Origin: Escherichia coli
GTDB taxonomy: Bacteria > Pseudomonadota > Gammaproteobacteria > Enterobacterales > Enterobacteriaceae
DNA length: 64,000 bases
Assembly (NCBI RefSeq): GCF_003018235.1
Contig: NZ_CP027439.1
Direction: 5' to 3' (one strand)
Position numbers: made by a program. How positions within the stretch are numbered: position 1 is the first letter of the stretch; each line of letters opens with the position of its first letter. Below are positions 42,001 to 48,000 of this stretch, in pieces.

Positions 42001-45000
42001 AGCACAAACCCATCGTAATGTATGGACCTGCATCTTCTTCAGTATTCGTCGGTGCTGGTAAAAGTTTACGCAGGTCAAAATCGGGAGCTGTTGCAAGGTG
42101 AACAACTTCCTGTGCTGCTGCCGGAGCTGTTGTCAGGACAGGTGGAATTGGTGTCTGTACGGAGTCTTTCAGCAGATGCCCCAGACGTTCCGGAGGACAA
42201 TTCAGGAAGTGGCTGACGCGATTACGGGAACCATTAAGGCCAATAGCTACACTGATGTCGTTAAAACCTTTAATTTTTTTGAACATCATTACAGGACCAT
42301 TTTTACGGGTCGGGCGCTGACAGGTTCCACCTGCGCCAACATAACGATAAACGCCAGAAAGTTCCGCATGTGGATCTACTTCTGTATCGGTTTCGACATA
42401 TTCACCAGGTAATGTTTTTAGTAGCTCCAGTGCAGAACGGAGGTCATGAACATTATTTTTCATTGAGTTGCTCCTGTTGATTAGCAGTAAGACTGATGAC
42501 GGTGTACCTTAATATCCGACAAAAAATGCGACAAATACCGTTTACCTGTATCTGAGTAGATCAAAAAAGTGTGAGGGGCTGAAAACCTGATGTACACTCC
42601 CCAACAGCATACGGGACTGAGGGGATTTATGGATTTAAAGCGTTTACGTTACTTCTGTCGGGTGGTGGAACAGGGCTCAGTAAGTCGGGCTGCAAAAGTG
42701 TTGAATATGGCGCAGCCACCACTTAGTAAACGTATTCAGGAACTGGAGGATGAGTTGAAAACGCCGCTCTTTATACGCAAAGGTAATCGTATCGAGCCAA
42801 CAGAAGCGGGTTTTTTTCTCTATCGTAAAGCATGCGAGATCCTGCGTCAGGTGGAAGATACTACGCGGGAGACTATGGCTATTGCGCAAAAAAATAATCC
42901 CAAACTTCATCTGGGAATTACGCACCTTTTTCAGTCTTATTTCAAGTCGCTACTACTGGCATTTTGTGAACGTAATCCAGATATAGAAGTGAGCATATCA
43001 GTTACAGACTCAAGTCACCTGGAAGATTTACTTAATGAAGGTACAATTGATTTGGCTCTGATCCAACGACCGTATCATGATGATGGGTATGATGTTGTTT
43101 CTTTTGATCCCATAAAACCTGTGGCTGTAATCAGTAAAAAATGTTTGCCATACATATCTGATACGCCTGTTAACTATATAACACTGGCCAGCTTCCCGCT
43201 GATATTGTTACATCGGGCGAAGGATTCTGGCATCTATGAAAAACTGCTTGACTTATTCAGGAAGACAGGAGTAACTCCAGAAGTGTTAATGCATATATCC
43301 CAGCCGGGTATGATTATCGACTGGCTGGAGTCAGGGCTGGCTGCGGCCACTCTTTTACCTTCATCAGAAGTAGACGCAACTTGTTTACGCCATTGTCACG
43401 TGGTAGATATTTTCCCCTCCCCCCAGCTTTTTTATCCTGCGATGGTGAAAATGCCTGCTACTAACTGGATTCCAGAAGTAATGGAAATAATTGCAGCCGG
43501 ATATCCCTGCAACATGAATACAGTTATTCCATATGTTAAGGAAAGAGAAGTTTCGCTCACTCGTGACAAGTGAGCGAACACGTGCGGTGGATAATATGGC
43601 TACCATTCTAAACAACAGTCAATATATGTGTTAAATTAATGTTTGCTAATATATGTGCTGGTCTGCTATTGACTGGTCAGATATCAAGACCAACAATATA
43701 CAAGATGGAAATATTGATGACGATCAGCCGTTGGCTGAAAAAACAACATGTTCTCACTTGGTGCGTACAGCAGAAAGGTGAACTCTGGTGTGCAAATGCT
43801 TTTTATCTGTTTGATGCGGATAAAGTAGCTTTTTATTTACTTACGGAGGAAAAAACGCGTCATGCACAAATGAGTGGTCCAAAGGCACATGTAGCCGGAA
43901 CGGTAAACGGACAGCCTCAAACGATAGCATTAATCCGTGGTGTGCAATTTAAAGGTCTGATTCGTCTACTGGAAGATGAGGAAAGTCACCTCATACGGCA
44001 GATATATAATCGTCGTTTCCCTATTGCCAGAATGTTGTCAACACCAGTATGGGAGATCCGTATCGACGAAATCAAATTCACTGATAATACACTGGGATTT
44101 GGTAAAAAACTTGTCTGGCAACGCCCAATAACTGAACAGCAAGGAATATAATTTTCCCCTAGAACCAAAAAATGTAAATGTTGGGCAACTAGGAGGGGCA
44201 GGAAGAGCATCCGTGAGTACATTGCGGAGCAGAACCTGATAGCGGCCATTGAACGGGATGAACGGAAAACGAGCCTAGTCACCTGCACCATCGCGGCTTC
44301 GGGAAAACATATATTGTCAACGGACAGGAAGTGAAACTGCCAGAAGCTGCCAGACTACTCGGATATAGCGGCTTGTCCTCACTGCCTCACCGGATAAAAA
44401 AAGACAAAATCCCGCCCGGTGGTGATATAACTCACCTCATACCGACAAAAAAACATATGCCTGGTCGGGTAAGCCGTCCGCGCATATTTATTATTAATGG
44501 GCAGGAAGTATGATCCTACCCACGAATAGTGGACACACTGTTAAGCGAGTAAAATCGTTAACAAGGTGAACCATGACGCAAGCAAAATCTGTGAAGAAGA
44601 CATCCCGTAATCAATATACCCCGGAGTTTCGCCAGCAGGCACTGGCGCTGGCTGAGCGCATCGGCGTGGCCAAAGCCGCCCGGGAGCTCGGCCTGCACGA
44701 CTCTCAACTCTACGCCTGGCGCAGTAAACAACGTCAGCAGGGCTCCACCTCTGAGCGTGAGCAGCAACAGGCAACAGAAATCGCCCGCCTCAAGCGCCAA
44801 CTGGCCGAGCGGGATGAGGAACTGGCCATTCTCCAAAAGGCGGCCACCTACTTCGCCAGACGCTTGAAGTGAAGTACGGTTTTATACACCAACATTAGGC
44901 GGCGTTATCAGTGAAAAGCCTGGCCCGGGTACTGTGCGTCTCGCGCAGCGGCTGGTATGCGTGGCTGAAGCGCCGGCAATCCCCCTCGCCGCGGCAGATG

Positions 45001-48000
45001 CGCCGCCAGCAGTGTGATGAGCGGGTGGCGCAAGCTTTTATACAGGCAAAACAGCGCTATGGCGCGCCCCGTCTGACGCAGGAGTTGCGTGAGGCCGGCC
45101 ATGGCTGGAACCGTAAAACGGTGGCGGCCAGTCTGCGACGTCAGGGATTATGGGCCAGAGCGGCGCGTAAGTTCAAAGCCACGACAAACAGCCGGCATAA
45201 CCTGCCGGTGGCACCGAACCTGTTGCAACAGGACTTCAGTGCTACGGGGCCGGACCAGAAGTACGTGGGCGACATAACGTATCTGTGGACAGAGGAAGGC
45301 TGGCTGTATCTGGCGGTGATTATCGACCTTTATTCGCGCCGGGTGGTGGGCTGGTCGATGTCGGAACGAATGACGGCGGAGCTGGCGTGCAATACGCTGA
45401 AAATGGCGCTGTGGCGGCGGAAGATGCCGCGCGGCGTGATAGTCCACACCGACAAGGGGAGCCAGTACTGTTCCCATGATTATCAGAATGTTATCAAAGA
45501 CAATGGACTGATATGCAGTATGAGCGCGAAGGGCTGTTGCTACGATAACGCCTGTGCGGAAAGCTTCTTCCACAGCCTGAAAGTGGAGCTAATCCACGGA
45601 GAGAGGTTCAACACGCGGGAGGAGATGAAATCGGCGGTATTCGAGTATATCGAGATAGACTACAATCGGCACCGACGGCATAGTGCCAACGGCGGGCTAA
45701 GCCCTGTGCAATTTGAGGAAAGCAACCTCGCTTAAGGCTGTGTCCACCGTTGCTGGGCAAGATCAAGAAACTTTATAAAAAAGGGAAGGAGTAAGACCTT
45801 CCCAACAAGAGGTTAGAACCACAAACAGATCGCATATAAGAACTATATGCATATATCATGCTATCGATGAATGAGTATGATGTCATCACTTTTGTTAAAA
45901 AGTGAGAGAATAAATAACATAAAACTCTTATTTATTCTTGATAGGGGATAATCCCTTTAGTGGATATTTATGGAGTTTGAATGTTGAAAAGTGCACATCA
46001 GGAACTTACAGAACTGTATTAATGTCGTGTATAATCATTGATAATTATAGAAAATCAATTTATGGCTTTATAAAAATAAAAAACAGAACCCACCATAAAA
46101 ATGGGTTTTGTAATACTATGATTGGTTATGGGAAGAATATTATAATATTCTCTTTTCAGAGGTTATCACCATATAGATCAAGTATCAATATGCGGCATAA
46201 TAATAATGGGAGATAATTAACATTACACCCTAATTTAATCAAATTGATATAATGTTTTTCCTAATTTTTGTATCAATTGTGAGTTATATATTGTATAACA
46301 AATCAATATAGATAAGCTTTTCAACATGCTTTATGTAAACATATTTCCCACTGTCATATATGTATATGTTTTTTTATAATCATTCAAAAAAGAGAATCAA
46401 TAAAGGTGCCAGATAAAGCACCTGAAATGATGAATAAATCTAGATGATAAGGCGTCGCAGATAATGACGGAAATTTATAGTGATAACACCTTTTTTAACA
46501 TAGACAGTATAATTGGCACTGACACAAATGAATCAATATGTTGTGATGGTCGAAAACTGATAATAATAATTATAAGTAATAATATGCTAGGTTGTGGGAG
46601 TAACTACTTCTGCCAAATAATAGAACACATCAACAGGAAGAATAAAAAGAGTGACATAAATATCATAATCTTCTGCCGAAGGCGAATGGTTAATATAATA
46701 TCCGATACGGTGAATAATAGAATACTATGCCTCCCCTACCATAGCTTAATAAGAGGCATGAGTATATCAATGCTTAAGGGGATATTTCTGATGAGTTTTA
46801 GGGAGCGAAATATAAACTTAAGGGTGACCCCTGCAGAACAGAGGGTTATTGACTTATATCTTCATGGTAAGACATACGATGAAATAAGTTCTATTCTCGG
46901 AATAAAGCCAGGAACAGCATCAATTTATAAGAACAAAGTGATTAAAAGATTCGGCGTCTCGAATGAGTTGGAATTATTTTATAAGATGTATATCATAAAC
47001 AAAGTAAAAGATTAAATTAACAGGAGCAGAATACATCCCCCCCTCGTCCGTGACAGGGGGGGCTTACTCAAGCAAGCTAACTGATAATCAATTAATTGTC
47101 AGAACGATACGCCTGTTAGGACTTAAACATTTTCTGCGTTCTTTTTTATCTTTCTGTGCACAAAAAACTATAGGCTCAGAACTTCCTTTAGCTACCGTGG
47201 TTATGTCTTTGTCGGGAACGCCGTTGCGAATGAGAATATCTTTAACAGCATTTGCCCTTCTTTCAGATAAACGCATGTTGTAATTATCACTTCCTATATT
47301 ATCAGTATAGCCGTTAATTACAATTTTACTATGTTTTTTACCATTGTTTGCTAATTTCTTGACTATAGTTGAAATAATTTCAATACCTTCACTCCCGATT
47401 GCTGAAGAATCAAAGGGAAATAGAACGTCCGCTTTTATTTCTAGCCTGCCATGGTCAAATTCATCCTTAGCAACAGAATGTGCAGGAGCAGAGTGCGGGG
47501 GCAGTTTGCAGTTATCAGGAAGCCAATATACTGACCCCACATTCATATTCTTGTCAAACAAGACTTTGAATTGACAGATATGGTGACCACTGTTATTTTC
47601 GAAATTGAATACATAGTCCCATTCCCTTACTCCAGCTACACCTTCGGAAAAGTGGGGACGACCGATTAAATTATAAATCTGATCTTTATTCATACCCTTT
47701 TTAATCATATATACATTATCCCAGTTTGGCCACGACCCGAATTGAGAACCATTATGATTAAATGTGGATTTTTCTATAGGTGGCCAAACTGGCTTTTCGC
47801 TCCGACCATCATCAGAAACTTTGCTAAGATTACCACAACCAGATAATAATGATAATGACAATAAAGTTAGTACGGTTCTTCTAAACATTTTTGCTTATTC
47901 TCTTATATTTATCCAATATGATTACCACTGATAACCGACGCCCGCCCCAACAGAAAAATTGCCACGTGTATTTTGTCCGGCATTCATTTTCAGAATAACC

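Follow-up and report, generated by a model that had tools for sequence, protein, structure and literature searches.

An IS3-family insertion sequence at a probable recombinant joint between UbiD/UbiX and adhesin blocks of an Escherichia coli plasmid

Features of the locus

The DNA analysed here is a 64,000-nt stretch from Escherichia coli (the window), in which an insertion sequence (IS) separates a UbiD/UbiX block from an AT-rich block of OmpA, YadA-like and S6-peptidase genes (Table 1). The initial annotation had placed the IS exactly at the boundary between the two blocks, and both the homology breakpoints and the base composition agree with that position (GC ~41–50% on the left, 58–59% in the IS and 27–47% on the right).

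The assignment to the IS3 family, also made in the initial annotation, is confirmed. The orfB product matches the NCBIfam model NF033516 ('IS3 family transposase') with 344.5 bits (E = 7.8e-103), against a cut-off of 160 bits, and is matched by Pfam rve (E = 1.8e-28) as well as by rve_2 and HTH_21. The two reading frames lie in the relative phase 0/−1, and in L098, an intact relative, orfB begins before orfA has ended. The termini read TGATCC...GATCA and belong to the only inverted repeat reported in a search of positions 44100–46000. Three independent criteria set the ends at 44511 and 45765: the inverted repeats, alignment to 94%-identical copies, and the breakpoints of homology to relatives without the IS, which fall at 44510 on the left and at 45766 on the right.

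Table 1. Coordinates of the IS, its reading frames and its flanks in the window.
Feature	Position	Strand	Basis or remark
Open frame, internal fragment (codons ~82–163 of 206) of an orphan four-repeat protein gene	44262..44510	+	translation, relatives
Left flanking triplet GTA	44508..44510		present once in IS-free relatives (...GGAAGTAACAATAAGCC)
IS3-family insertion sequence, 1,255 bp, 57% GC, 5'-TG...CA-3' ends	44511..45765	+	reading, profile matches, alignment
Left inverted repeat (IRL)	44511..44549	+	39-nt arms, 77% complementary; 21 of the first 27 bases match
orfA, 99 aa, HTH_Tnp_1 (E = 1.9e-11)	44573..44872	+
AAAAG motif near the orfA end, candidate −1 frameshift site	44835..44839	+	conserved in all relatives
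Amber TAG in the orfB (−1) frame, between slippery site and catalytic domain	44896..44898	+	CAG in relatives
orfB remnant ORF, 274 aa; HTH_21, rve, rve_2	44911..45735	+
Right inverted repeat (IRR)	45727..45765	+	partner of IRL
Right flanking triplet AGA	45766..45768		present once in IS-free p100-type sequences (...TTTCTGATAGAAACTTT)

The short frame on the left had been described as a small HTH-like ORF interrupted by the IS. Its translation does stay open until a TGA at 44511–44513, formed by the first bases of the left repeat, and the frame was indeed cut by the IS, since the same flank continues in frame without it in Escherichia albertii pEA36_2 (NZ_CP117592.1) and in Logan contig L012. 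There the sequence runs from ...GGAAGTA directly into ACAATAAGCC, and the frame past GTA adds a further repeat unit before a stop 43 codons on. What was cut, however, was not an intact ORF. The product of 44262–44510 is 93% identical to a full-length relative (P0001), of which it represents an internal piece, and the 5' half of the gene is missing through a 1.9-kb deletion: positions 6328–8243 of L012 are absent from the window, from pEA36_2 and from plasmid pSCU-111-1. Judged from these comparisons, the frame is a doubly truncated pseudogene fragment that was defective before the IS arrived.

The label 'HTH-like' was too strong. No Pfam or NCBIfam model matched the fragment above cut-off, and its best sub-threshold matches were an excisionase model (TIGR01764, E = 0.09), HTH_18 (E = 0.087) and an AraC-family regulator in the PDB (E = 0.44). 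AlphaFold modelled one repeat as a β-hairpin with two helices (pLDDT 83). A Foldseek search of the PDB with this single-repeat model returned nothing at E < 3; its tightest local overlays, none of them significant (0.7–1.4 Å over 26–29 residues), were with the HTH domains of RacA, NtrC4, GcrA and an sCTP DNA-binding protein. The fold search with a model of the full 206-aa protein gave nothing meaningful (E ≥ 0.65, TM about 0.13). On the strength of these models, an HTH nature of the repeat protein is plausible.

Relatives and inactivation of the element

The closest relatives of the IS are copies in Brenneria sp. hezel4-2-4, Brenneria sp. 4F2 and Affinibrenneria salicis L3-3HA, with identical termini, 94% nucleotide identity and 93–96% identity in OrfB. 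These copies are 13–14 bp shorter than the one in the window, and their hosts are tree-associated Pectobacteriaceae rather than Escherichia. Among 5,426 complete E. coli genomes the element occurs a single time; in pSCU-111-1, RefSeq/PGAP labels it only 'IS3 family transposase'. Metagenome loci also yielded a 1,258-bp comparison element, which we take to be IS3 of Escherichia coli (IS3 group). It is nearly the same length as the window IS and has TGATC... termini and closely similar inverted repeats; the 0/−1 phase of orfA and orfB, AAAAG at the orfA end and, as judged from the Brenneria copies, a 3-bp duplication are common to both. Over the full length, however, nucleotide identity is only 68.5%, and the window IS is therefore a different element, not an isoform of IS3.

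IS3 itself frameshifts at AAAAG, and the motif is retained in the window copy. Downstream of it, the −1 frame meets TAG at 44896, so that full-length OrfAB cannot be made. This TAG is present in 13 of the 13 copies compared at the window junction, in contrast to the CAG of the Brenneria and Affinibrenneria copies; the relatives read as CAG were L098, L099, L014 and L016. In the branch leading to pSCU-111-1, a 325-bp internal deletion has in addition taken the overlap of orfA and orfB. IS3-family transposition requires OrfAB (PMC11708052), and the window copy, from which no fusion transposase is predicted, is by its sequence dead.

Unrelated sequences on the two sides of the element

The 3 bp flanking the IS differ, as direct reading shows (GTA on the left, AGA on the right), and this mismatch, already pointed out in the initial annotation, survived refinement of the boundaries: no target duplication appeared when they were shifted one base each way or when a length of 4 bp was assumed. 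The 94%-identical copies in Brenneria sp. and A. salicis, in contrast, sit at a chromosomal site with a perfect 3-bp duplication (GTC/GTC), so that the missing duplication reflects the history of the window copy and not the type of element. Two near-identical copies elsewhere are likewise flanked by imperfect or unlike triplets (TTT/TTC and CCC/GGT), which leaves only one of four independent contexts with a perfect duplication; a missing duplication may be common for this element.

The right flank has an IS-free partner of its own. In E. coli p100 (NZ_CP023358.1) and four other assemblies, ...TTTCTGAT runs directly into AGAAAC, and what adjoins the flank is the 5' end of an IbrA-like gene (PAPS-reductase/DUF3440), whose start codon in p100 lies 22 bp from the breakpoint. 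IbrAB is the immunoglobulin-binding regulator, with a PAPS-reductase-like IbrA followed by a ParB-like IbrB. The p100 pair contains PAPS_reduct and DUF3440 (E = 5.5e-34) domains and a weak ParB_N match (E = 7.5e-4) that falls below cut-off, and it adjoins the YadA-like/OmpA pair; an exact-protein look-up of the IbrA-like protein found none on record. Named by these domains and neighbours, the genes lost on the right side would be an IbrAB-like pair.

Each side thus has a different partner where the IS is absent, pEA36_2 and L012 on the left and p100-type sequences on the right, and the two flanks had therefore never been neighbours. No IS-free version with the flanks adjacent (GGCAGGAAGTA joined to AGAAACTTTAT) was found in PLSDB, in the 5,426 complete E. 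coli genomes or in ~35 fetched contigs. The earlier suggestion that the two sides were not originally contiguous is accordingly supported by the sequences now compared.

These two IS-free relatives also refute the simplest history, insertion into a contiguous target whose 3-bp duplication was later erased by point mutation. Duplications are known to be lost through decay (PMC11708052), and TTT/TTC in one related copy could be such a case. Here, however, the DNA beyond the triplets is unrelated too (ACAATAAGCC... in the left partner, ...TTTCTGAT in the right one), and turning GTA into AGA would take two substitutions within DNA that is otherwise 97–99% conserved. We give this history almost no credence.

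The joint is old and inherited. The same junction is present in the complete plasmid pSCU-111-1 (189.7 kb) and in contigs L228, L229, L231, L234 and L237, and of the 23 contigs read with an identical OrfA, 21 share the same gene neighbourhood. This distribution bears on a possible assembly artefact. ISs commonly cause chimeric joins in short-read assemblies, but this one is single-copy in the window and in pSCU-111-1, and more than 20 independent assemblies, produced by different projects and each with its own point differences, contain exactly this junction. We regard a contig mis-joined through a repeated IS as extremely unlikely.

Origin of the joint

The continuation of the left ORF (ACAATAAGCC...) is absent from the 64-kb window, and the 1.55 kb past the left site of pEA36_2 has no match anywhere in complete pSCU-111-1. 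No reciprocal junction occurs in either the window or pSCU-111-1, and no parental junction, in which the same triplet (GTA or AGA) would stand at either end of the IS, was found. Neither of the predicted parental sequences, IRR followed by GTAACAATAAG or TTTCTGATAGA followed by IRL, appeared among the metagenome matches listed, where the degenerate pattern also caught IS3 of E. coli and other relatives; among the at least 120 matches listed, only L172 was at least 90% identical to the IS. An inversion was rejected, as the missing partners of both flanks are absent from complete pSCU-111-1 and the ORF continuation from the window. A larger transposing unit, either the IS with the adhesin block or the UbiD block with the IS, whose duplication would lie at its far end, was set aside as well, the missing target-site halves being nowhere in the window or in pSCU-111-1.

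We consider it very probable that this IS3-family element marks a recombinant joint, made when an IS-dependent event connected the two sites with loss of DNA. The left end of the IS lies at the margin of the UbiD/UbiX block, in the repeat-protein gene that was defective by then, and the right end at the margin of the adhesin block, at a different site 22 bp upstream of where the IbrA-like gene would start. Joining the two sites would have removed the DNA between or beyond them, with losses that include the final 43 codons of the repeat protein, a 196-aa gene and the genes of the IbrAB-like pair. The hybrid IS would accordingly carry half of one target site (GTA) and half of another (AGA). Three routes could have led there: the IS may have transposed once and deleted neighbouring DNA, a resident copy may have transposed within its own molecule, or two copies, in a single plasmid or in different ones, may have undergone homologous recombination. 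The copy would then have decayed in place, through the change of CAG to TAG and, in the pSCU-111-1 branch, the 325-bp deletion. The initial annotation had suggested that the IS mediated the junction; the hybrid flanks fit this, and since no parental or reciprocal junction was found, we infer the causal role from the flanks alone.

Such joints have precedents. Missing duplications commonly arise by recombination between ISs or by adjacent deletions, and in three LTEE populations deletions accompanied 17% of IS movements, all of them of IS150, a member of the IS3 family (PMC11708052). As here, the IS150, IS5 and IS481 cases of that study have flanks of different origin and no duplication, and they were ascribed to IS–IS recombination, to deletion next to the IS or to a rearrangement coupled with insertion (PMC11708052). 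Those cases were caught as they arose in laboratory evolution, whereas our locus shows just the outcome, which is now fixed in a plasmid lineage in nature.

A one-step transposition without duplication would also join two sites. A newly arrived Brenneria-type IS would have inserted its ends at both and discarded the DNA between them, and the right site, 11–13 bp from the point at which IbrA-like cassettes switch neighbours, would be a place where breaks recur and not a target hit at random. This version gains some support from the single perfect duplication among the four contexts of the element, and we hold it to be possible, if rather unlikely.

p100 may not represent the simple ancestral state of the right side, because its IS-free site is itself near a module boundary: four other IbrA-like cassettes, all in different contexts, cease to be homologous to it 11–13 bp from the breakpoint. 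The IS might have come first, at the adhesin edge next to another left partner and at a recurrent breakpoint, with the IbrA/adhesin junction of p100 formed secondarily at the same IS end and the IS then lost. The closeness of the IbrA-like start codon to the breakpoint is in keeping with this order, as is a terminator-like hairpin on the minus strand (45803–45783), which lies directly upstream of the IbrA-like gene in p100-type sequences and leaves little room for a promoter. An extra event would be needed, however, to excise the IS to its last base, and p100-type sequences contain no IS remnant. Sequences upstream of IbrA-like genes also differ in every context examined, so that divergence close to the start codon may be normal cassette variation. 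In pSCU-111-1, a PAPS-reductase pair at 169314–171180 is a 90% paralogue, but its upstream region is unrelated, and no homology between that region and the left edge of the adhesin block was found. We regard a secondary origin of the p100 junction as improbable; it would alter the history of the site, not the reading of the IS as the marker of a recombinant joint.

Finally, the UbiD/adhesin junction might have formed first, independently of the IS, which later landed exactly there without duplicating its target. Insertion without duplication, possibly at existing DNA breaks, has been proposed (PMC11708052), and no parental junction was found that would exclude this sequence of events. It requires two independent events at the same phosphodiester bond, though, and joined flanks without the IS were encountered neither in PLSDB and the complete E. 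coli genomes nor in the ~35 contigs. We consider it very unlikely.

An IS-dependent joint of the kind we favour would be an ordinary, well-known rearrangement that leaves current understanding unchallenged. It would explain why the UbiD/UbiX and AT-rich adhesin blocks are neighbours in one IncF plasmid lineage, and it changes the annotation of the short ORF to a pseudogene fragment and that of the IS to a defective copy. The event would also have split the YadA-like/OmpA adhesin genes from the IbrAB-like pair. In a passage of PMC7649339 that cites Sandt et al. 2002, IbrB is described as activating expression of Eib, a YadA-like adhesin; if the p100 pair acts as IbrAB does in that account (PMC7649339), adhesin regulation may differ between the plasmid types. 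Lastly, the IS, found a single time among 5,426 complete E. coli genomes and most closely related to copies in tree-pathogenic Pectobacteriaceae, serves as a minor marker of gene flow between these hosts.

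Flanks of the IS3-family element in IS-free relatives

The IS3-family element that the initial annotation had seen at the boundary between the UbiD/UbiX block and the AT-rich adhesin block is present: its orfB scores 344.5 bits against the NCBIfam IS3-family model (cut-off 160), and its 39-nt terminal pair is the sole inverted repeat found within 44100-46000. Its ends were fixed by three independent lines of evidence, namely the inverted repeats, copies in Brenneria and Affinibrenneria, and homology breakpoints against IS-free relatives. The copies in Brenneria sp. hezel4-2-4 and Affinibrenneria salicis (94% identical nucleotides) have identical start and end bases and a perfect 3-bp duplication, GTC/GTC. 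Alignment to them left the ends of our element at 44511 and 45765; its flanking triplets do differ (GTA left, AGA right), and no target duplication emerged under any boundary shift or 4-bp alternative. The element is a member of the IS3 group, probably an unnamed one.

Coordinates of the element, its neighbours and related loci (window positions unless a contig is named)
Feature	Position	Details
IS3-family element	44511-45765	1,255 bp, 57% GC; starts TGATCC, ends GATCA
Left terminal inverted repeat	44511-44549	39 nt, 77% complementary to right repeat
Right terminal inverted repeat	45727-45765	39 nt
orfA	44573-44872	99 aa; HTH_Tnp_1, E=1.9e-11
AAAAG motif	44835-44839	near orfA end; conserved in all relatives
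orfB	44911-45735	274 aa, one phase back from orfA; HTH_21, rve, rve_2
P0001 gene	L012 8001-8621	1.8 kb downstream of YhbP gene
yacB-like fragment	44197-44267; L012 6225-6313	~70 bp, between YhbP gene and repeat-protein fragment
Terminator-like hairpin with T-run	45803-45783	minus strand; consensus match only; 7 bp from IS right end
LuxR/GerE-type gene	46464-47015	183 aa; first gene right of IS, AT-rich region; GerE, E=1.4e-6
IS copy on L099	3924-5178	99.2% identical; defence-island-like context (SIR2/DUF87); flanks CCC/GGT
IS copy on L098	5939-7193	98.2% identical; defence-island-like context (BREX brxABC); flanks TTT/TTC

Among 72,556 PLSDB plasmids searched with 43600-46800, the whole arrangement occurs in one record (E. 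coli pSCU-111-1, NZ_CP051728.1), the left flank alone in one and the right flank alone in one. E. albertii pEA36_2 (NZ_CP117592.1) matches 43600-44510 at 99.3% and continues without an IS, reading ...GGCAGGAAGTA up to the site and ACAATAAGCCAGGCC... beyond it. E. coli p100 (NZ_CP023358.1) matches from 45766 onwards (94.9% over 45766-46800; 96.5% over 45766-51423) and reads ...CACTATTTCTGAT before the site, followed by AGAAACTTT; the part before the site belongs to an IbrA-like PAPS_reduct/DUF3440 gene, of which it is the 5' end, and the next gene matches ParB_N weakly, below threshold. Uninterrupted versions of both flanks thus exist, but in different plasmids, and the suspicion that the two sides were not originally contiguous holds. 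GTA occurs once at the empty left site and AGA once at the empty right site, the pattern predicted for halves of two separate targets; this supports mediation of the junction by the IS.

Ten contexts of the adhesin block, read after a look-up of the identical 183-aa LuxR/GerE-type protein, fall into two classes only: five with the IS (L228, L229, L231, L234 and L237) and five IS-free, p100-type contexts (L230, which is p100, L232, L233, L235 and L236). This protein is identical in IS-bearing and IS-free plasmids and is listed in 240 public-collection blocks.

The interrupted frame

The frame at 44262-44510 stays open until the TGA with which the left repeat begins. In pEA36_2 it is open for 43 codons further, with an identical continuation in Logan contig L012, so the ORF was indeed interrupted by the IS. 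Its description as HTH-like is only plausible: no Pfam or NCBIfam model exceeded its cut-off for the repeat protein described below (the best sub-threshold matches were HTH segments), AlphaFold predicts a beta-hairpin followed by two helices for one repeat (pLDDT 83), and Foldseek with this model returned nothing significant, the tightest local overlays being HTH DNA-binding domains.

Among 5.8 billion proteins, the search recovered one relative (one cluster): P0001, a 206-aa protein encoded on L012, 93% identical and built of four tandem units of ~50 aa (...YIVNGQEV-x-L-x-EAARLLGY...L..RI....IPPGGDISHL...). The window frame corresponds to its residues 82-163. L012 6328-8243, and with it the gene start and first repeats, is missing from the window, pEA36_2 and pSCU-111-1; owing to this older deletion, the gene was already a pseudogene before the IS arrived. 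On L012 the frame extends without a stop ahead of the called ATG, with coding capacity for a complete first repeat, so P0001 may in reality exceed 206 aa. In the nearby yacB-like fragment the similarity is to the 5' portion of yacB, an IncFII toxin gene (82-93% identity, ~1,400 plasmids); the genuine yacAB lies far away, at ~36.5 kb. L012, with the older arrangement, has the fragment too, so it was there before the 1.9-kb deletion.

Formation and inheritance of the joint

An IS carrying halves of two targets is a classical sign of recombination between IS copies, IS-promoted adjacent deletion or insertion-coupled deletion. No reciprocal product was found: the ORF continuation is absent from the 64-kb window (≤3 mismatches allowed), and nowhere does the complete 189.7-kb pSCU-111-1 match the 1.55 kb that pEA36_2 carries past the left site. 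To the left of the right site, p100 and pSCU-111-1 share only a paralogous gene pair (pSCU 169314-171180, 90% identical) whose upstream region is unrelated. With the missing partners of both flanks absent from the window and pSCU-111-1, and the IS single-copy in each, inversion was rejected in favour of a net loss of DNA. The joint could then have arisen by recombination between two IS copies, by an adjacent deletion promoted by the IS, or by IS insertion coupled to deletion; no parental junction was recovered, and the metagenome scan used a pattern too degenerate to be informative on this point. All three are documented (PMC11708052): in three LTEE populations, 14 of the 83 IS movements were accompanied by a deletion, each of the 14 being a movement of IS150, which also belongs to the IS3 family.

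The IS was found once among 5,426 complete E. coli genomes, in pSCU-111-1, and the next best PLSDB matches are Klebsiella elements, ~70% identical. Across 100,044 species-representative genomes the nearest OrfB relatives are in Brenneria and Affinibrenneria (93-96% identity), all others being ≤73%. A 1,258-bp element, which we take to be E. coli IS3, is 68.5% identical. Given how seldom our IS occurs in Escherichia, a single event is a more economical route than passage through a transient two-copy state, on grounds of parsimony only. The window gene neighbourhood recurs in 21 of the 23 contigs read with identical OrfA, so the joint has been inherited within a plasmid lineage. A perfect 3-bp duplication is absent at the L098 and L099 copies as well.

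Past AAAAG, the -1 frame stays open for 20 codons and then reads an amber TAG at 44896-44898. All relatives have CAG there (Brenneria, Affinibrenneria and the 98-99% identical copies in other contexts, L098 and L099), and TAG is present in 13/13 copies compared at this junction. The window copy is thereby predicted to be unable to make OrfAB and, as IS3-family transposition requires OrfAB (PMC11708052), to mobilise itself. The pSCU-111-1 copy has an additional 325-bp deletion that removes the orfA/orfB overlap; spacing and an orfB called at 266 aa suggest it in L231 and L237 as well. The initial observation is confirmed throughout, and an IS fossilised at an IS-mediated joint, an ordinary phenomenon, is the supported reading.

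Two other differences separate the window from pSCU-111-1. At ~36816-36839 it lacks 990 bp (pSCU 2076-3063), a stretch that holds the bulk of yacB and the 5' portion of a 3'-5' exonuclease gene; an alignment overlap of ~24 bp suggests deletion between short repeats. Collinearity ends at 54152/54153, beyond which 54153-64000 corresponds to pSCU 35518-25674, inverted, at 99.9%; this break adjoins the pSCU position of an ISEc20 (IS110-like) copy (35544-36740) and is another IS-associated rearrangement.

The right-hand site and the IbrAB-like pair

The annotated start codon of the p100 IbrA-like gene lies 22 bp from the breakpoint. We compared p100 with four other IbrA-like cassettes, each in a context of its own (L238, L239, L240 and the pSCU paralogue): in 4/4, homology ends around this start codon, 11-25 bp from the breakpoint, extending furthest in the pSCU paralogue (11-13 bp). 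By these alignments, IS-free plasmids too have a module boundary close to the right site. The proximity may be coincidental, given that the regions upstream of IbrA-like cassettes differ everywhere, or it may have been left by earlier activity at this spot; the conclusion that the joint is IS-mediated is unaffected. The terminator-like hairpin abuts the right site and, in p100-type plasmids, stands directly upstream of the IbrA-like gene.

A passage in PMC7649339, citing Sandt et al. 2002, states that IbrB enhances expression of Eib, YadA-like immunoglobulin-binding adhesins. Should the p100 pair work as an IbrAB, the YadA-like and OmpA genes would have lost it as their neighbour through the rearrangement, which we offer as a lead only.
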